Assembly (NCBI RefSeq): GCF_003334405.1
Contig: NZ_QOWM01000023.1
Source of the DNA: Escherichia coli
GTDB taxonomy: Bacteria; Pseudomonadota; Gammaproteobacteria; Enterobacterales; Enterobacteriaceae
Length of the DNA: 45,349 nucleotides
Reading direction: 5' to 3' (one strand)
Positions 1,599-45,349 of the stretch are shown piece by piece. Positions within the stretch are counted from its first letter, which is position 1; each line of letters begins with the position of its first letter. The notes below the pieces were generated by a model that saw only the letters and a program-made list of their open reading frames with translations, was not told where the DNA came from and did no database searches. Made by a program: the position numbers and the translations under genes.

Positions 1599-2891
1599 TC
1601 ACAGATACGGCGACCAGGCAGGGAATTTGACCTGTCCATCAGTTGCCGGAAGACGCGCTTTGAAACGCCCATCTGTAGAAACCAAATTCAGCACGGATCC
1701 CATCCCCTGAGAAGAGCTGTAGATTACCATAGTGCCGTTAGGTGCCAGACTTGGCGTTTCATCCAGGAACGTGGACGACAGAACTTGTACGCCTCCCGTT
1801 GCCAGATCTTGTTTGGCAATGTGCTGCTGCCCACCATTGGAGCTGACCATTACCATAAATTTACCGTCGCTGCTGACATCCGCATCCTGGTTCTGCGAAC
1901 CTTCCCAGGTAATACGTTGTGGCGCACCGCCGTTGATATTCACTTTATAAACCTGCGGACGACCGGCCTGGTCAGAAGTAAATGCCAGGTTCTGGCTATC
2001 CGGGAACCAGGTCGGTTCGGTATTGTTACTGCGACCATCAGTCACCTGGCGGATCTGACCAGAAGCCAAATCCATTACGTACAGGTTCAGACTACCGGTT
2101 TTCGACAAGGCGAATGCCAGTTTGCTGCCGTCTGGCGAGAATGCAGGTGCACCGTTGTGACGCGGGAATGAAGCCACCTGACGTACAGCGCCATTTGCCA
2201 GCGTCTGAATAACCAGCGCGGAACGACCGCTTTCGAAGGTCACATAAGCCAGTTTAGAACCGTCTGGTGACCACGCCGGAGACATCAGCGGCTGCGGTGA
2301 ACGGTGAACGACAAACTGGTTGTAACCGTCATAGTCAGATACGCGCAGTTCATACGGGAACTGACCGCCGTTGGTCTGAACAACGTAGGCAATACGAGTA
2401 CGGAACGCACCTTTAATGCCGGTCAGTTTTTCAAACACTTCATCACTGGCGGTATGACCAGCATAACGCAGCCACTGCTTGTTCACTTTGTACGAGTTCT
2501 GAGCAAGTACAGTACCCGGTGCGCCGCCAGTGTCAACAAGTTGATAAGCAACATTGTAAGAACCATCCGGATTCGGAGTGACCTGACCGACAACTACAGC
2601 GTCAATGCCCAGTGCGGACCATGCAGCTGGTTGTACTTCCTGCGCACTACCCGGCTGCTGTGGCAGACGAGCGCGATCTAACGGATTAAATTTACCGCTG
2701 TTACGCAAGTCAGCAGCAACGATGCCGCCAATATCTTCAGGTGCCGCACCAGGCCCCGCCCACTGGAAAGGAACAACACCAATAGGACGACCGGAATCTA
2801 CACCGCTGTCGATCACAATGCGGACTTCAGCATGCAGAACTGATGCCCACAGTATGAGAAAACCAAATGCTACTCGTAATGCCTGCTTCAT
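1599..2891 (-). CDS. tolB: Tol-Pal system periplasmic beta-propeller protein TolB
   Basis: 430 aa from [21 protein letters not shown]. The ORF track begins one Met earlier at 2894. Confidence 0.95.
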
Positions 2892-3023
2892 CATATCTCC
2901 CTTATCTGGACCGATGGCCCACGATAATTTAGCAGAATGTTAACAAACTAAAATACACAAAACTACCAGAACCCCGTGGCAACCGGTGCCTGATGTTGAC
3001 CGTCCGAACAGTCAACATCGCGA

Positions 3024-4289
3024 TTACGGTTTGAAGTCCAATGGCGCGTTTTTGAACACTTCATATACTGCCTGGCTTGGTGGTTTCGGGATCTTCGCAA
3101 GTTTAGCTGCTGCCAACGCAGCCTGACAAAGTGCGGGATCGCCACCTTCAGGTTTGATATCCAGTAACATACCATCGGGTGCCAGTTTTATGCGCAGCGT
3201 ACAGGTTTTGCCTGCATAGGACGATGCGTCATAGAACTTACTTTCGATAGCAGATTTAATCTGCCCGGCATAGTTATTGATATCGGCCCCTGATGCGCCA
3301 TTGTTTTTAGTATTACCACTCCCGGCAGGCGAAGCATTGTTCCCTTTCGCCCCTCCCCCCGTTTTCGGTGCATTCTTACCAGAGCTTAGCTCACCGAAAA
3401 TATCATCTGCCTCTGCGGCCGCTTTTGCTGCAGCGGCTTTTTCAGCTGCAGCTTTTGCCGCTGCCGCTTTTTTGTCTGCGGCGGCTTTTTCTGCCGCTGC
3501 TTTCTTATCAGCTGCTGCCTTTTCAGCAGCCGCTTTTTCTGCTGCTTTTTTGTCGGCTGCAGCTTTCTCTGCTGCCGCTTTCTTATCAGCTGCAGCCTTT
3601 TCAGCAGCCGCTTTCTTCTCAGCTTCTGCTTTGGCTTTTTCAGCAGCTTCAGTTGCCGCTTTCTTTCTTGCTTCAGCTGCAGCTGCTTCTGCCGCTTCCG
3701 CTTTCTTCTTCAGTGCCGCAGCGGCTGCCTCGGCTTTTTTCTGCGCTTCGGCTGCGGCTTTGGCGGCTTCTGCTTCTGCTTTTTTCTTTGCGTCTGCAGC
3801 CGCTTTCTTCGCTGCTTCTTCCGCAGCTTTAGCATCTGCTTCGGCCTTCGCTTTAGCATCTGCCGCCGCTTTCGCTGCCGCCTCTTCAGCTTGCTTCTGC
3901 TTTAACTCGGCCTGTTTTGCGGCTTCTTCAGCCTGCTTTTTCTGCTCCTGAGCCGCTAACCGCTCTTTCTCAAGTTGCTTCAGGCGTTCCTGTTCAGCCG
4001 CTTGTTTCTCACGCAGTTCTTCAGCAGCCTGCTGTTCCTTCATCTTGCGCTGTTCATCAGAACGCTTCGCGCTTGATTCCTGGCTTTGCATGCGTTTGTA
4101 CTGCTCAACTACCGCACCTGAATCAACCATGACAGCGTCGATGGACGAACCACCGCCGCCTCCGGCTGAAGCTTCTATATTCTCATCGAACGAACTCCAG
4201 ATCAGCGCCGCAAATAAGATGACATGCAGCACTGCTGAAATAATTATCGCCCGCTTGAGCTTGTCGTTTTGTTCGGTTGCCTTTGACAC
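3024..4289 (-). CDS. tolA: Tol-Pal system protein TolA
   Basis: 421 aa: MSKATEQNDKLKRAIIISAVLHVILFAALIW membrane anchor, long Ala/Lys/Glu-rich helical domain II, Gly-rich linker and C-terminal domain III. Confidence 0.96.
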   Translation of the reverse strand: MSKATEQNDKLKRAIIISAVLHVILFAALIWSSFDENIEASAGGGGGSSIDAVMVDSGAVVEQYKRMQSQESSAKRSDEQRKMKEQQAAEELREKQAAEQERLKQLEKERLAAQEQKKQAEEAAKQAELKQKQAEEAAAKAAADAKAKAEADAKAAEEAAKKAAADAKKKAEAEAAKAAAEAQKKAEAAAAALKKKAEAAEAAAAEARKKAATEAAEKAKAEAEKKAAAEKAAADKKAAAEKAAADKKAAEKAAAEKAAADKKAAAEKAAADKKAAAAKAAAEKAAAAKAAAEADDIFGELSSGKNAPKTGGGAKGNNASPAGSGNTKNNGASGADINNYAGQIKSAIESKFYDASSYAGKTCTLRIKLAPDGMLLDIKPEGGDPALCQAALAAAKLAKIPKPPSQAVYEVFKNAPLDFKP

Positions 4290-4353
4290 TCTCGGTTTCC
4301 AAAAACTGTTCGCCTGTTACCCGCTCTCTTTCAAGCAAGGGAAACGCAGATGT

Positions 4354-4782
4354 TTAGATAGGCTGCGTCATTAAACCAACCGATTTCACACCCGCACTAT
4401 GTAACAAGTTCAGTGCTTTAATTATTTCATCGTAAGGCACATCTTTTGCGCCACCGATCAGAAAGACCGTTTTCGGGTTGGCCTTGAAACGGCTGGACAC
4501 TTCCGCCACCACCTGCTCTGGTGGTAAACGCTCCAGGCGATCTTTCTCAACCACCACGGTGTACTGACCAATACCAGACACTTCAACAATCACTGGCGGA
4601 TTATCGTTACTGCTCACCGCCTGTGATTCAGTAGCGTCTGGCAGATCGACCTCCACGCTCTGGGTGATGATGGGCGCTGTCGCCATAAAGATCAGCAACA
4701 GCACCAGCAGTACGTCCAGCAACGGTACAATGTTGATTTCGGACTTGAGATCGCGACGACCTCGTCCACGCGCTCTGGCCAT
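4354..4782 (-). CDS. tolR: Tol-Pal system protein TolR (ExbD/TolR family)
   Basis: 142 aa, MARARGRGRRDLKSEINIVPLLDVLLVLLLIFM, single TM helix. Confidence 0.95.
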   Translation of the reverse strand: MARARGRGRRDLKSEINIVPLLDVLLVLLLIFMATAPIITQSVEVDLPDATESQAVSSNDNPPVIVEVSGIGQYTVVVEKDRLERLPPEQVVAEVSSRFKANPKTVFLIGGAKDVPYDEIIKALNLLHSAGVKSVGLMTQPI

Positions 4783-4785
4783 GGC

Positions 4786-5879
<1,094 letters not shown>

Positions 5880-39662: not shown

Positions 39663-39770
39663 GCCTGATGCGACGCTTGACGCGTCTTATCAGGCCTACG
39701 TATTTCCTGCAATTTATTGAATTTGCACAAATTTGTAGGCTGGATAAGGCGTTCACGCCGCATCCGGCAT
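39663..39770. repeat. REP (BIME) palindromic units between dtpD and phr
   Basis: GCCTGATGCGACGCTTGACGCGTCTTATCAGGCCTAC and the inverted GTAGGCTGGATAAGGCGTTCACGCCGCATCCGGC, separated by an AT-rich spacer. Confidence 0.85.
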
Positions 39771-39796: not shown

Positions 39797-41215
39797 TTAT
39801 TTCCCCTTCCGCGCCGCCTCATACGCTGCCAACGTTTGTACTCTCGCTTCTTTGTGCTCGACTATCGGTTGCGGATAATCCAGCGTCACACCTGCTTTCT
39901 GCGCCCACTTCCACGGCTCATGCACCACTTTCCCTGGCACATCGCGCAGTTCCGGTAGCCACTGGCGGATAAACTCGCCCTCATGATCAAATTTCTCGCC
40001 CTGGGTTGTCGGGTTGAAAATACGAAAATACGGCGCTGCATCGGTTCCGGTTGAAGCGGCCCACTGCCAGCCACCGTTATTGGCTGCCAAATCACCATCA
40101 ATCAGCTGCGACATGAAATATCGCTCGCCTTCGCGCCAGTCGATCAATAAATCTTTCACCAGAAAACTGGCTGTAATCATCCGTAGCCTGTTATGCATCC
40201 AGCCAGTGCTGTTAAGCTGACGCATAGCGGCATCAACAATCGGGTATCCCGTTTTGCCTTCCTGCCAGGCCTGTAAATGTGCGGGATTGCTCTGCCACTG
40301 TACACGATCCGTCCAGGCAATAAATGGACGATGTTTACACAACGAGGGGTGATACGTTATCAGGTGACGGTAAAACTCGCGCCAGATCAGCTCATTAAGC
40401 CAGACACTACCGGCCCCACCGTCCAGCGCCTGCGGCTGTTCAGCCAACAAGCGATGCAAGCACTGGCGAGGCGATAACCCGCCCGTTGCCAGGCTGGCCG
40501 ACAAACGGCTGGTGCCTTCCACTGCCGGAAAATCTCGTTGTTGCTCATATTCTCCGGCACCGTTCTGGCAAAACTGGCGTAATTGCGCAATCGCCGCTTT
40601 TTCTTCCACCGGAAAATGCGCAGTATCGAAAGACTGACGAGGATAATTCAGCGTAATGGATGGCGAGGGCTCTATCGATCCGCTACTACGAACTTTTGGC
40701 GCAGCGACGCACTCCGGCATCCCTTCCCGCAGCCGTTTCAGCCAGGCATTCTTAAAAGGCGTAAAGACTTTGTACATCTCGTGATTACCGGTCATCACCG
40801 CGCCAGGCGGCAGGATCACGCTGTCATCAAATCCTTCACACACCACGTTACGCAGCGCTCTTTCAACTTCCACATCCCGCGCCCGCTCATTCACTTCATA
40901 CTGATAGTTATAAAACAGGTGGGTAACGCTGTTTTCCGCGCACACCTGTTTAACTATTTCGACACTGGCGACAAAGTCATCCACTTCACGGAACAATAAA
41001 GGAATACCTTTTTCCGCAAGCGCTATTTGTAGCCCATTCAGTTGAGCATTGATAAGTTCAGCCTGACGCGGCGACATGTTATGCGTCGCCCACTGGCGTG
41101 GTGTAGCGATATACAACGCCAGCACGCGTGCAGACGAATTGCGGCAGGCGGCAGCCAGTGCGAGATTATCGTGCAGACGTAAATCCTGGCGAAACCAGAC
41201 CAGATGGGTAGTCAT
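39797..41215 (-). CDS. phr: Deoxyribodipyrimidine photolyase
   Basis: 472 aa, MTTHLVWFRQDLRLHDNLALAAACRNSSARVLALYIATPRQW, FAD-binding C-terminal domain. Confidence 0.97.
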   Translation of the reverse strand: MTTHLVWFRQDLRLHDNLALAAACRNSSARVLALYIATPRQWATHNMSPRQAELINAQLNGLQIALAEKGIPLLFREVDDFVASVEIVKQVCAENSVTHLFYNYQYEVNERARDVEVERALRNVVCEGFDDSVILPPGAVMTGNHEMYKVFTPFKNAWLKRLREGMPECVAAPKVRSSGSIEPSPSITLNYPRQSFDTAHFPVEEKAAIAQLRQFCQNGAGEYEQQRDFPAVEGTSRLSASLATGGLSPRQCLHRLLAEQPQALDGGAGSVWLNELIWREFYRHLITYHPSLCKHRPFIAWTDRVQWQSNPAHLQAWQEGKTGYPIVDAAMRQLNSTGWMHNRLRMITASFLVKDLLIDWREGERYFMSQLIDGDLAANNGGWQWAASTGTDAAPYFRIFNPTTQGEKFDHEGEFIRQWLPELRDVPGKVVHEPWKWAQKAGVTLDYPQPIVEHKEARVQTLAAYEAARKGK

Positions 41216-41721
41216 AAAACTCCTGAATGGCGCAAGTTAATCACACGCGGCCAAAGTTCGAAATAACGCTGCCCTGAAAGCCAGGCGTCAGGATAAAGCG
41301 CCATATAGTGTTTGATACGCATCAGCGGCGCAAGAAGTGGTTGCTCGCCACGGCGATAACTGTCGATAAGCGCAGCCAGCTGCTGGCGTTCTGTGGAATC
41401 AATATGCGGGCGAAAATAACCCTGAACGTGCATCAAAACATTGGTGTGATCGCGCGGGTTGGCGGGGTGAGAAAGCAAAACAACTACGCGTTGGCGGTAC
41501 TGGTTGTAATAGTCATCCAGATTTTGCCACTGGTGAATATCAGCCACGAACGGGCCAAGTTTGCGGTACTCCGGCTGAGAATGCGCCAGAAAGACGAGTT
41601 TATAGCGGCTGTGATAATCGAGAAGCGCCCCGCGCGTTAAGCCATGTTCTTTCAGTCGATGTAACTCATGAAGGGCAAAGATACGGATTAGGGTGCTGTC
41701 ATCAAATCGTTGTAGATTCAT
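41212..41721 (-). CDS. ybgA: DUF1722-family protein YbgA
   Basis: 169 aa, MNLQRFDDSTLIRIFALHELHRLKEHGLTRGALLDYHSRYK. Its stop overlaps the phr start (ATGA). Confidence 0.9.
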   Translation of the reverse strand: MNLQRFDDSTLIRIFALHELHRLKEHGLTRGALLDYHSRYKLVFLAHSQPEYRKLGPFVADIHQWQNLDDYYNQYRQRVVVLLSHPANPRDHTNVLMHVQGYFRPHIDSTERQQLAALIDSYRRGEQPLLAPLMRIKHYMALYPDAWLSGQRYFELWPRVINLRHSGVL

Positions 41722-41868
41722 TACTGCTCCTGAGCGGTTTACAGGAGTAAGTGTAGACGTTGAGAAATGATATTTGTGAAGTTAATCCTGTTGTAGCAGG
41801 ACAAATTTACGAAAGCCTGCTCCCCGCAAGGACTGACGTCAGGTAGTTTCTAACCATAGCTGCCCTTT

Positions 41869-42630
41869 CTATTCAAACGTGAAATCAATAAGCTCATCAG
41901 GGACATCGCAAACAATATGAAGACGGGTTTCTTCTCTGCCGTGACTCTTTTCACTAATTGCGTAACTGTCATGCTTGGGATTATTTAATTCTTTCAGCGG
42001 AAATTTTTCCTCGAAGGCTTTATTTAGCCGCCCCTGGTTTCCTTTTACAGCGAATAAATAATCACCTCCCTGTTTTTGTATCTTCTCTGCAATATCTTTC
42101 TGGCAACCCATCGCATCAGTTGTGATGATTTTTCCTTTAATATCCAGCATGTTAAGAAGTTCTGGGATAGCTGTAATCTCATTAGATTTCTCATCCGTCT
42201 TGATCTGTCCGATGACCAGACTGTGCATTGTTGAGAACGCACTAATGACATGAATCGCTCCCCTGCGGCGACTCTTGTCATAAGAGTGCCGGAGCGTTTT
42301 TCCATCAATTGCAATGACGTCTTTATCATCTGAAGAATGGCAGTCACGCATCCAGTTAATAAAGCACTCGTGAAATTTTGCAGGACTGATACAGGATACA
42401 ACTCTGGCAATGGTATCGTGAACAGGAATACCATTTTCAAAATCACCATATTGCTTCAAAAAATCGGGATGTGTTTCCCCAAAATCCTCTATATCTTCCC
42501 AGCCTTCTGCACCAGAAATAACGGCACAAATAGTCAACAGTAGAATATCCGATAACTTATGTTCCATTTTCCAGGCTTGTCTGTAATCGGGGATAATAGA
42601 AATATGTCCCATCAATTTTTTAAGTTCCAT
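41869..42630 (-). mobile_element. ybfD: H-repeat-associated ISAs1-family transposase, N-terminal 253-aa fragment
   Basis: 253-aa [24 protein letters not shown]...[24 protein letters not shown]. Paralogous to the adjacent copy and ends where a full-length ISAs1 transposase would continue, so C-terminally truncated. Confidence 0.85.
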
Positions 42631-42869: not shown

Positions 42870-43860
42870 TTAGGCTGCGTTTCCTCTTCTTATCCGGCTG
42901 GCATCTTCATTCATTTTTACATCTAACACCCAATGAAGACTGTGCTCGATCAGCCAGTGCGCTCTGATAGCATGTGCAAATTCTTTAGCATCCATATCCT
43001 TTGATGAAATATAATATCGGATGCTTACACCTTCTGCTGATTTATCTTCTTTCTTCTGCCTGAATGACAATGCTACACAAAGCTTTTTTAATCCCTTCCA
43101 TTCGAATTCAAAATCACAAAAGTTCAGGCGTTACGTTACTGACAATATGCAAACGTGTTTCTTTTCTTCCATGACTTATCTCCTGCGTACTAAACGAATC
43201 GCCTTTATAATTAGAAAACACATTTACAGGAAATTTTTCCTCGAATGCATGATGTAATTTCCCCTGATTGCCTTTTACTGCCAGAAGATAATCTGCTTTT
43301 TTATCTTTGATCTTCGAAGCGATATCTTTCTGACAGCCCATAGCATCAATGGTTATCAAATTTTTCTTTAAATACAGTAGGTTAAGCAACTCTGGAATGG
43401 CTGTAATCTCATTACTTTTGGCTTCCGTTTTCACCTGCCCCAGTACAACACCATTTTCGTTCGAGAATGCACTCACCATATGGATTGCTCCTTTTCTTTT
43501 TCCCTTATCAAAGGAGCCTCTTATGGTCTTTCCATCTATTGCTATAATTTCACCATCAGTGATTTCATGGCACTCCTGCATCCATTCAATAAACATCTTT
43601 TCAAAGGCCAAACTGTCAATGTTACTCACAACGCGTGCAATGGTGTCATCGACCGGAATGCCATTATCAAAATCACCATATTTCTTTAGCCATTCAAGTC
43701 TTTCATGTCCAAAATCTTCAATTTCCTGCCACTCATCGGCACCTGCAATTACTGCACATACGGTGAGAAACAAAATAGCAGATAATTTATGTTTAACCTT
43801 TCCTTGTTGTCGTATATCAGGGGTCACTGAAATATAATCAAGCAAACTTTGAATACTCAC
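42870..43860 (-). pseudogene. ybfL: Frameshifted, C-terminally truncated ISAs1-family (H-repeat) transposase
   Basis: The N-terminal part (43114-43860, 248 aa, MSIQSLLDYISVTPDIRQQGK...) stops at 43114. The continuation (...[65 protein letters not shown]) lies in another frame at 42870-43070 and ends short of the family's usual C-terminus. Confidence 0.8.
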
Positions 43861-44041: not shown

Positions 44042-44500
44042 TTATGACCATTTACCAATCCAGTCAAAAACTTCATTTTTCAAATTGTTATCATAATAAT
44101 CAACATCATAATAGTCTCCATAATTAATTATTTTATAACTAGCCTTCTTGTTTTTATCACTAAAATACACCCGTTGTTTTGTAGCGCAGAACTCCATATT
44201 CTCCAGTTTACTAATGTTTTTTAATCGCACGCTATAAAGAATATCATTGAAAAAATTAAGATTTATATCAACCACTCCACAGTGCGTCCTGTAATTATTA
44301 ACCATTATACTTATAAAATGACCATTCCCTCTACTAATTTTTTGGTCATTAATTATTTTATAAATAATATTTTTTTCAGAAAGATATATCTCAACGCTCT
44401 TTGGTGTTTTATGTCCATAAAATACGATGTCAGAATTTGAATTGTTATCAAACCCAAGGTAAACAACAAATAAACAAAGGGTAATTAAAAAAAATGACAA
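44042..44500 (-). CDS. Candidate Rhs-tip immunity protein (AT-rich ORF with N-terminal hydrophobic segment)
   Basis: 152-codon ORF beginning 8 bp after the Rhs-tip stop, with an apparent TTG start (the ORF-track 'M'). Strongly AT-rich with Asn/Ile/Lys/Tyr-rich composition and MSFFLITLCLFVVYLGF at the N-terminus. May correspond to K-12 ybfC; start codon uncertain. Confidence 0.6.
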   Translation of the reverse strand: MSFFLITLCLFVVYLGFDNNSNSDIVFYGHKTPKSVEIYLSEKNIIYKIINDQKISRGNGHFISIMVNNYRTHCGVVDINLNFFNDILYSVRLKNISKLENMEFCATKQRVYFSDKNKKASYKIINYGDYYDVDYYDNNLKNEVFDWIGKWS

Positions 44501-44508
44501 GTTTGCCT

Positions 44509-45349
44509 CTAATAATTTGAAGCATCTGAACTCCCTTGCTTTGCTTTTATTGGATTATCTGCTTTTATACCATCTAACCCGAAGAGTTGCCCAGTGTTAT
44601 ATTTTTCAATACATGCATCGCTACATTTGGCAGAAAAATCGCCACAAGCAATACCGACAGTGTTATTTTTAAGATCCATGATTCTTTCTTTAGCTGGCTG
44701 ACCTTGTCTATCCCCTGCCGCCTCATGATTTTTACCTATCACGTCAGCTATTGTTGATCCAAATGTCTTAGTCATTCGACACATCAAGTAACAATGTCTC
44801 ATTGCATCGGCGGCCCCATTATGAGCTCCGCCAACAATAGCATCCATATCATAACCGAACTGGTAAGCACTGTTAGTAATGCTGTTTGCAGCAATCAATC
44901 CAGGTACACCAGATACGGCATAAATTAGTCCACCTGATGTCATATTCTCAATCGCATCTAACCCCATTGGGTCTATCACTTGTATGGGATTCAACGGATA
45001 CTGATACATATTCCATCCACCTCTCAACCCAATCGGGTCCGGGGTGATATACCGCCCCTGCAACGGATCGTAGTGCCGGTGACGGTTATAGTACAGCCCC
45101 GACTCCTCATCATGCTGCTGCCCTGGCAGACGGTACGGCTGGTGCAGGTGATGCGGGTTCTCCTCATTAAGCTGGTTGCCCCATTCATCATACTCCCCGC
45201 GCCACGCCGTATTGCCGTCTTCGCTGATGAGCGCCAGCGGCAGGCCCCGGTGGTCGCAGTGGTAAAAATGAACTTTTCGCGCCGGTGTGTATTCCGGCTC
45301 CACCTGTCTGGCCAGTTGCTCCACCGTCAGCCCGCACTGCGCAAGCCAC
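44509..45349 (-). CDS. Rhs-family protein C-terminal region (partial; 5' end beyond the window): end of Rhs core plus variable toxin-like tip
   Basis: Reading frame is open to the window edge (...[37 protein letters not shown]...). It contains the core-terminal motif [27 protein letters not shown] (PxxxxDPxGL), then about 149 aa of unrelated AT-rich sequence to the stop at 44509. The ORF-track 'M' at 45324 is an internal GTG. May be K-12 ybfO. Confidence 0.8.

Follow-up and report, generated by a model that had tools for sequence, protein, structure and literature searches.

RudS is a fusion of a TudS/DUF523 [4Fe-4S] desulfidase with a DUF1722 domain (Jamontas et al., Nucleic Acids Research (NAR) 2024, PMC11417400). 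The enzyme strips sulfur from 4-thiouridine at position 8 of tRNA (s4U8), the near-UV photosensor, and binds tRNA in electrophoretic mobility shift assays. According to the same study, TudS is the fusion partner in about 74% of DUF1722 proteins, about 21% of the domains occur by themselves, and rudS genes are often found in photolyase or other light-response operons (PMC11417400). Here we analysed a stand-alone DUF1722 gene, ybgA, in a stretch of Escherichia coli DNA of 45,349 nucleotides (contig NZ_QOWM01000023.1 of assembly GCF_003334405.1; hereafter the window). In the window, ybgA (41212..41721, minus strand) is followed on the same strand by phr (phrB; 39797..41215), the downstream gene of the operon, which encodes deoxyribodipyrimidine photo-lyase. 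On balance, ybgA is rather probably the DUF1722 part left over from a tRNA-s4U desulfidase gene linked to phr; it would be co-transcribed with phr and under selection for a non-catalytic role, likeliest the binding of tRNA or other RNA. The evidence for this origin is strong, and the role is one that we infer.

Several published observations bear directly on the gene. Mutation of the DUF1722 residues S243 and R244, modelled as contacts to the tRNA anticodon arm, impaired RudS activity. When E. coli YbgA was overexpressed, both the s4U content of tRNA and growth on thiouracils were unchanged, and stand-alone TudS or YbgA, overexpressed separately, had no effect on s4U (PMC11417400). The RudS authors describe E. 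coli as lacking a TudS homologue and mention gene splitting as a possibility (PMC11417400). The sole ybgA phenotype that we found in the literature points towards tRNA: in a screen with the LeuRS inhibitor epetraborole, the Keio delta-ybgA mutant was hypersusceptible together with trmU, trmC and yheM (tusC) mutants, as an unvalidated screen match (PMC12457515). Our literature search found no paper on YbgA function after 2024 and nothing relevant on 'orf169' together with phr. An earlier reading of this DNA, made from its letters alone (the sequence-only reading), had called YbgA a protein without assigned function; this holds for YbgA itself, but not for DUF1722, which was characterised within RudS in 2024.

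YbgA as counterpart of the C-terminal half of RudS

The ybgA reading frame starts with ATG and encodes a stand-alone DUF1722 protein of 169 aa (20.2 kDa, pI 9.55) with no cysteines. Residues 41-158 match Pfam DUF1722 (PF08349) over the entire model (1-117 of 117, i-Evalue 6.2e-35), and the full length (1-169) matches the NCBIfam equivalog NF007549 (PRK10167) with 347.9 bits against a cut-off of 237. In a full-database search most of the strongest relatives were proteins of 315-330 aa, and residues 8-165 of YbgA aligned with residues ~160-320 of these TudS-DUF1722 fusions. Likewise, in the 319-position profile of the phage RudS family phrog_3275, YbgA residues 11-164 matched positions 162-315. 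By these alignments YbgA is the equivalent of about residues 160-318, the C-terminal half, of an ancestral RudS. Seven residues (K41, G56, N94, H98, G101, I119 and Q151) are invariant in 23 diverse DUF1722 sequences, and all of them are kept in YbgA. The AlphaFold2 (AF2) model is all-helical, with 10 helices and a predicted local distance difference test score (pLDDT) of 91.7. Neither a solved structure nor a known fold relative of YbgA was found, no cofactor-binding fold was recognised, and PADLOC gave no defence-system match.

Correspondence to rudS extends to the start of the gene. An alignment of upstream regions showed that the E. coli ybgA ATG, its Shine-Dalgarno (SD) sequence AGGAG and the element GTCTACACTTA are homologous to the Citrobacter start region. 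The SD sequence (41727..41731, minus strand) lies 5 nt before the ATG and has its homologue in the SD of Citrobacter rudS, be that gene full-length or truncated; GTCTACACTTA (41748..41758, minus strand) is a conserved -10-like element with a C at -13 and the presumed ancestral rudS-phr promoter. In look-ups of close relatives the order kdpFAB - ybfA(DUF2517) - [rudS or ybgA] - phr - ybgI(NIF3) was conserved. All seven catalytic TudS columns are gaps in K-12 YbgA in the alignment. A pseudogene remnant of TudS in the K-12 locus was considered and rejected, as tblastn with the 158-aa TudS domain gave no match there. Since the start signals are retained and no TudS remnant is present, ybgA is orthologous to rudS by position, but has had its catalytic half deleted.

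Loss of the desulfidase domain and selection on the remainder

The locus survey was a scan of one genome per species with the narrower alignment A2, which yielded 406 confirmed relatives. The best 80 loci, all from Enterobacterales, were examined and, together with the window and six earlier loci, made up a set of 87 loci, in which 82 DUF1722 genes aligned cleanly; statements on co-occurrence outside Enterobacterales rest on few look-ups and on the literature. The full TudS catalytic set (C12, C44, E46, R55, S107, S/T109, C110) was present in 59 of the 82 aligned genes. The TudS domain was gone in 20, namely in all 7 from Escherichia, 7 from the Citrobacter freundii complex, 2 from Trabulsiella, 3 from the Klebsiella/Enterobacter group and 1 from Yersinia. 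In the remaining three the TudS half was degenerate: a 282-aa metagenomic gene (L005) has its cluster cysteines replaced and internal deletions, the Leminorella gene measures ~259 aa, and that of Samsonia erythrinae (L058) carries C44S. Two database proteins, P0122 and P0126, are of full length with all three cluster cysteines replaced. Judged by their sequences, the Samsonia gene, P0122, P0126 and L005 look like intermediate pseudoenzyme stages between RudS and YbgA.

The stand-alone genes of the Citrobacter freundii complex start with MSKRIPVGIxxC, which corresponds to residues 1-12 of TudS and passes almost immediately into DUF1722; such a junction reads as the signature of an internal in-frame deletion. 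The N-terminal junctions of the stand-alone genes differ from lineage to lineage. When a tree was built from phr, stand-alone and degenerate forms fell into at least five separate clades, and the Yersinia sp. gene was placed beside Y. nurmii, which carries the full fusion. The stand-alone groups of Escherichia and Citrobacter are sisters in both the phr and the DUF1722 tree and have the derived FD[DE][SN]TL motif in common, therefore they probably go back to one loss event. The 282-aa degenerate gene, which clusters with fusions from Buttiauxella, clearly goes back to a different event.

Both gene forms occur side by side within Citrobacter (L017 versus L043; L015, L031, L023). A 184-aa headless gene was found in C. 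youngae CCUG 30791 and C. portucalensis, and full fusions of 317-318 aa in C. youngae ATCC 29220, C. werkmanii and Citrobacter sp. MGH106. The phr genes of headless and fusion Citrobacter are interleaved in the phr tree, a pattern that suggests recombination or allele replacement. Among the surveyed loci, rudS or phr appeared frameshifted in L001 (a Pluralibacter gergoviae NCTC assembly), L041, L073 and L028; in L001 many adjacent genes are also split, so sequencing error is probable there rather than real pseudogenisation. The Enterobacteriaceae-type rudS-phr region of L035 (CACSKA010000002.1), titled 'Chryseobacterium sp. 18061', is nearly identical to that of 'Citrobacter sp. 18056' (L030), and L035 is probably a mislabelled or contaminated assembly.

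Selection on the remaining domain was estimated as pairwise Nei-Gojobori (NG86) dN/dS of the DUF1722 region. In this coarse test on few lineages, values of 0.141 for Escherichia (phr 0.100), 0.084 for stand-alone Citrobacter (phr 0.069), 0.114 for Trabulsiella and 0.087 for the Klebsiella group were obtained, against 0.025-0.052 for DUF1722 in fused genes. Constraint on the stand-alone domain is thus relaxed two- to five-fold, yet still strong. The stand-alone domain has also stayed basic (net charge +3 to +6, pI 9.0-9.7; fusion medians +6 and pI 9.7). Two motifs that are 100% conserved in fusions were lost in the stand-alone proteins: the N-terminal linker helix L-x-D-P-x-L-R-E-N-F, of which only Trabulsiella among the stand-alone lineages retains the ENF core, and the C-terminal L-R-Y-G-H tail. 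Decay at both ends of DUF1722 is the pattern that would be expected for surfaces that once contacted TudS. For the tRNA-contact residues S243, R244 and T246, RudS_KT numbering was mapped through the Pseudomonas cluster representative P0206 as a proxy. At the position of S243, K-12 has N88 where 81% of fusions have T, and R90, adjacent to the R244-equivalent, is retained.

These values bear on whether YbgA matters as a protein at all. Conceivably, ybgA is a decaying relic that acts purely in cis, its reading frame being kept for the promoter, leader and translating ribosomes that phr needs. The catalytic domain is indeed gone, neither of the published assays showed activity of YbgA, the start of phr falls within the ybgA stop codon, dN/dS is 2-5 times that of the fused domain, one functionally important arginine has been lost, and shortened E. 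coli variants, e.g. 132-aa and 115-aa clusters, are found in databases. A relic of this kind would be expected to drift to a dN/dS of ~1 and to variable length, but 0.08-0.14 was seen in four stand-alone lineages, and every invariant DUF1722 residue and the domain length are preserved. Purifying selection still acts on YbgA, so the protein is no dead relic, and we regard an exclusively cis-acting gene as unlikely, all the more in view of the phr spacers described below.

With the enzyme half missing from the gene, another possibility is that YbgA serves in trans as a tRNA-targeting adaptor for a separate enzyme, either a plasmid-borne TudS/RudS or an unrelated tRNA modification or repair enzyme. 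Gene splitting, as raised by the RudS authors, would fit this, and the epetraborole screen places ybgA among tRNA-modification mutants. A DNA search with the TudS segment of Citrobacter matched 70 of 5426 E. coli genomes (~1.3%; 56 matches on plasmids and 14 on chromosomes), so that a RudS gene, mostly plasmid-borne, is at hand in some strains. The same search detected no TudS-like sequence in the other 5356 genomes, in agreement with the RudS paper; with TudS in just 70 genomes, typical E. coli has no TudS for YbgA to work with. The plasmid RudS proteins are complete 319-aa fusions that need no adaptor, and the N- and C-terminal motifs by which YbgA is expected to touch TudS have degenerated. 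Overexpression of TudS or YbgA had no s4U effect, although this concerns single expression, co-expression not being reported. Altogether, an adaptor role in trans seems very unlikely. One of the plasmid genes, L090 (NZ_CP042902.1 plasmid, 2642-4939), is part of a MerR-uraH-rudS module, and its complete 319-aa fusion is labelled 'YbgA family protein' in RefSeq.

The phr junction and the upstream region

At the junction, ybgA and phr overlap by 4 nt in an ATGA (41212..41215, minus strand), in which the ybgA stop TGA occupies 41214..41212 and the phr ATG 41215..41213; the overlap noted in the sequence-only reading is thereby confirmed to the nucleotide. The plus strand reads 'tcat' at 41212-41215, the 3' end of ybgA reads ...GGA GTT TTA TGA, and the TG of the stop codon is common to the phr ATG. 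The SD sequence of phr, AGGAG (41220..41224, minus strand), lies inside ybgA codons 166-167, 4 nt before the phr ATG. The phr product of 472 aa, annotated likewise in RefSeq, matched NCBIfam NF007955 (deoxyribodipyrimidine photo-lyase) with 958 bits. The 2.2-kb ybgA-phr segment is 100% identical to that of MG1655 (K-12) and was found in 5423 of 5426 complete E. coli genomes (>=80% coverage), in keeping with the earlier statement that the pair is present in K-12.

A consensus scan predicted no terminator-like and no promoter-like site between ybgA and phr. The two genes thus look like an operon pair, being on one strand with overlapping stop and start and nothing predicted in between, and these features, together with their adjacency throughout the survey, support the co-transcription that had been proposed. 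From the sequence, coupled translation of ybgA and phr is plausible. Two further candidates at the junction were rejected: for an internal phr promoter within ybgA the sole match of the consensus scan falls inside phr, and for an RNA structure that hides the phr SD/AUG to enforce coupling the minimum free energy (MFE) of the junction is close to that of shuffled sequences (z=-0.91). Just 3' of the phr stop, on the same strand and within the phr/dtpD convergent intergenic region, a match to the Rfam small RNA ES036 (CssrF) was found (39692-39734, minus strand; 75.1 bits, gathering threshold 37.6).

The ATGA overlap is real but statistically unremarkable, because the 4-nt ATGA is the commonest overlap type in bacterial operons. 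All 7 Escherichia lineages have the overlap and no other sampled genus does; in those genera, spacers of 3-65 nt, and one of 163 nt, separate ybgA or rudS from phr, each with an SD sequence. In Citrobacter the homologous GGGAG/AGGAG with its TTTT spacer sits in the intergenic region and not in a coding sequence. Fusion proteins end with ...LRLRYGH-stop, E. coli YbgA with ...LRHSGVL-stop, the latter reading through what is the intergenic SD region in Citrobacter. Since the E. coli reading frame crosses this Citrobacter-type region, the overlap is recent and arose via loss of the old stop codon and spacer; being specific to Escherichia, it represents a recent local change and not a conserved signature of a functional tie. 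The earlier argument that tight coupling is a sign of shared function is therefore not upheld. Moreover, as phr has its own strong SD sequence and spacers of 3-65 nt in most genera, coupling through the overlap is not generally needed, which also argues against ybgA being kept purely for its effect in cis.

Independent of the overlap, photolyase lies directly downstream of the DUF1722 gene, on the same strand, in 87 of 87 Enterobacterales loci. This constancy, which persists after the loss of TudS, speaks for YbgA as an accessory protein of photolyase that would bind Phr, load or protect FAD or methenyltetrahydrofolate (MTHF), or target lesions, with the overlap enforcing stoichiometry. Selection on YbgA is about as strong as on phr, and some databases name a YbgA-type protein 'photoreactivation-associated protein' (P0081). 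Adjacency inside one bacterial order is, on the other hand, largely inherited synteny, and outside the order rudS can be parted from phr by a MerR gene (L091) or lie without a photolyase nearby (L092). Some three in four DUF1722 domains occur in fusions with a tRNA desulfidase, and this accounts for the link to light without photolyase; YbgA has zero cysteines and no match to a known cofactor-binding fold. E. coli photolyase keeps its full activity when it is overproduced and purified by itself, and many organisms with a photolyase are not known to carry a DUF1722 gene; both points count against an accessory protein. We consider this function quite unlikely.

The loci outside Enterobacterales differ in their neighbours. 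In a marine gammaproteobacterial contig (L091) the order is rudS-merR-phr, followed by genes for a SnoaL-like protein, a short-chain dehydrogenase, an amine oxidase and DUF1365, and L092 has the order hemH-rudS-GST-OsmC with no photolyase nearby. In Shewanella, a ybgA-phrB-cfa operon with an RpoE2-type promoter was described (PMC4336711). For three distant stand-alone DUF1722 genes (P0205, P0215, P0184) no photolyase was seen on contigs of 0.8-1.8 kb, which are too short for neighbours. The link of DUF1722 to light and oxidative stress is general, and adjacency to photolyase is not universal. Of the role in photoreactivation or with photolyase cofactors that had been suggested for YbgA, the light/UV context is retained via tRNA s4U8, and nothing was found for cofactors or photoreactivation.

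Upstream of ybgA, the 147 bp that precede the gene (41722-41868) comprise promoter and leader sequence and then the end of an H-repeat insertion. Within GTCTACACTTA, the sequence CTACACT begins 35 nt before the ybgA ATG, and 50 of 86 loci carry a CTA[CT]A[CA]T motif 32-42 nt ahead of the start codon, in most cases right behind the ybfA terminator. A generic sigma-70 scan did not call GTCTACACTTA; by its resemblance to the motif, the element would be a promoter of the sigma-S type. The appearance of ybgA among the RpoS-regulon quantitative PCR (qPCR) targets in a primer table (PMC3306417) fits such an element. In strains of the K-12 type, GTCTACACTTA directly adjoins the ybfD-side end of the RhsC/H-repeat insertion, which takes the place of the sequence upstream, the position that is occupied by the ybfA terminator in E. 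coli E69 and SCPM (L010, L011) and in Citrobacter. With the insertion, the promoter of ybgA-phr may have acquired a different -35/UP context.

The insertion itself carries ybfD (41869..42630, minus strand), a truncated ISAs1-family (H-repeat) transposase reading frame of 253 aa recognised by NCBIfam NF033564 and its RefSeq label and associated with RhsC. Further upstream follow a second truncated ISAs1-family (H-repeat) transposase frame of 248 aa (43114-43860, minus strand), paralogous to ybfD, an AT-rich frame of 152 aa (44042-44500) and an Rhs-type C-terminal frame (44509-45324, minus strand). Together with ybfD, these reading frames constitute the tail of the RhsC element.

A probable remnant of an s4U eraser and its relation to described systems

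The course of events that would best account for these findings starts from an ancestral gene whose N-terminal TudS (DUF523) domain, with its [4Fe-4S] cluster, turned tRNA s4U8 back to uridine, and whose C-terminal, all-helical DUF1722 domain docked the tRNA anticodon arm. An in-frame deletion would then have removed the TudS half in the Escherichia lineage and in several others. As the ancestral promoter-like element, SD sequence and start codon were kept, a 169-aa DUF1722-only protein would still be co-expressed with photolyase, although it cannot desulfurate s4U. Its residual activity would most likely be the non-catalytic binding of tRNA or other RNA during stationary-phase or UV stress. 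The ATGA overlap came late and in Escherichia only, once the ancestral stop codon and spacer were lost; it would guarantee co-transcription and probably lets ribosomes terminate and reinitiate at phr, a gene of very weak expression that has an SD sequence of its own as well.

Several points weigh against this account. The tRNA-docking role of DUF1722 in RudS comes from docking and molecular dynamics (MD) models plus mutagenesis of the fusion (PMC11417400), and RNA binding by YbgA, or by an isolated DUF1722 domain, would be an analogy to these fusion data. At the R244-equivalent position all 59 fusions have R, whereas K-12 has P89, Escherichia as a whole P/R/S/T and Yersinia P; the neighbouring conserved N (98%) is D91 in E. 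coli. With both positions changed, a RudS-type contact to the tRNA anticodon may be lost or altered. The dN/dS comparison is coarse, as stated, and the case for GTCTACACTTA as a promoter is one of motif resemblance. As to the origin, stand-alone forms group together on long branches in the DUF1722 tree, in conflict with the phr tree. Either faster evolution combined with long-branch attraction or the lateral spread of a single allele could account for this grouping; the loss of TudS in Enterobacterales appears to be repeated, with an uncertain number of independent losses.

Beyond the remnant reading, a bolder suggestion can be made tentatively, and we would sooner doubt than expect it to be correct. 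DUF1722 could have an autonomous non-catalytic function that is kept beside photolyase after repeated loss of the desulfidase, YbgA being a pseudoenzyme-like 'reader' of tRNA. Such a reader might bind tRNA that contains s4U or has been cross-linked by UVA, and might modulate the stringent response and the growth delay under near-UV; a more speculative role would be the recruitment of photolyase to damaged RNA.

Previous work had already described the ybgA gene, its pairing with phr in an operon, the overlap and the domain family. New here, and modest as novelty, are the orthology with rudS by position, the finding that the start signals were retained, the estimates of selection and the pattern of decayed surfaces. 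YbgA belongs to the remaining E. coli K-12 proteins of unknown function, and it does so in a textbook DNA-repair operon. Placing it as the remnant of an s4U eraser replaces a vague guess at photoreactivation with specific, testable, tRNA-centred questions. It also offers a possible explanation for the observation in the literature that the near-UV growth delay is stronger and longer in E. coli than in Enterobacter, which has the full enzyme. The practical impact is modest.

Among the closest described systems is RudS (P. putida PP_0741, Salmonella STM1389/ORF319), whose C-terminal DUF1722 half is homologous to YbgA over its whole length (residues 8-165). In 59 related species a full RudS is encoded where E. 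coli has ybgA, with photolyase likewise downstream, and YbgA has the promoter-like motif, SD sequence, start codon, invariant domain residues and basic charge in common with these genes. In contrast to RudS, YbgA has no TudS domain, cysteines or Fe-S site and showed no s4U-erasing or thiouracil-salvage activity in the published assays; its LRENF linker and C-terminal LRYGH tail are degenerate, and the R244-equivalent is a proline. TudS itself, the stand-alone DUF523 thiouracil/s4UMP desulfidase (PDB 6Z92/6Z96), is the other half of the ancestral fusion and provides the pathway context of thiolated uracils. TudS has neither sequence nor fold relationship to YbgA and was not found in E. coli K-12.

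Of the stand-alone DUF1722 proteins (YbgA family; PF08349, NF007549), K-12 YbgA is the founding member and scores well above both thresholds, and relatives in Citrobacter, Trabulsiella, Klebsiella, Enterobacter and Yersinia have its architecture and its neighbour. The NCBI label 'YbgA family protein' also covers full 319-aa RudS fusions and therefore mixes catalytic and non-catalytic proteins, an annotation problem that places complete RudS enzymes and headless YbgA under one name. Finally, in the light- and stress-responsive photolyase operons (LitR/MerR-phrB-rudS of Pseudomonas; the RpoE2/ChrR-dependent ybgA-phrB-cfa of Shewanella and Vibrio) a DUF1722 gene is co-transcribed with photolyase, as proposed here for E. 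coli. Unlike these operons, the Enterobacteriaceae locus lacks a MerR/LitR or ChrR regulator next to it; its upstream element resembles a sigma-S-type -10 sequence, and its DUF1722 gene in E. coli is non-catalytic.

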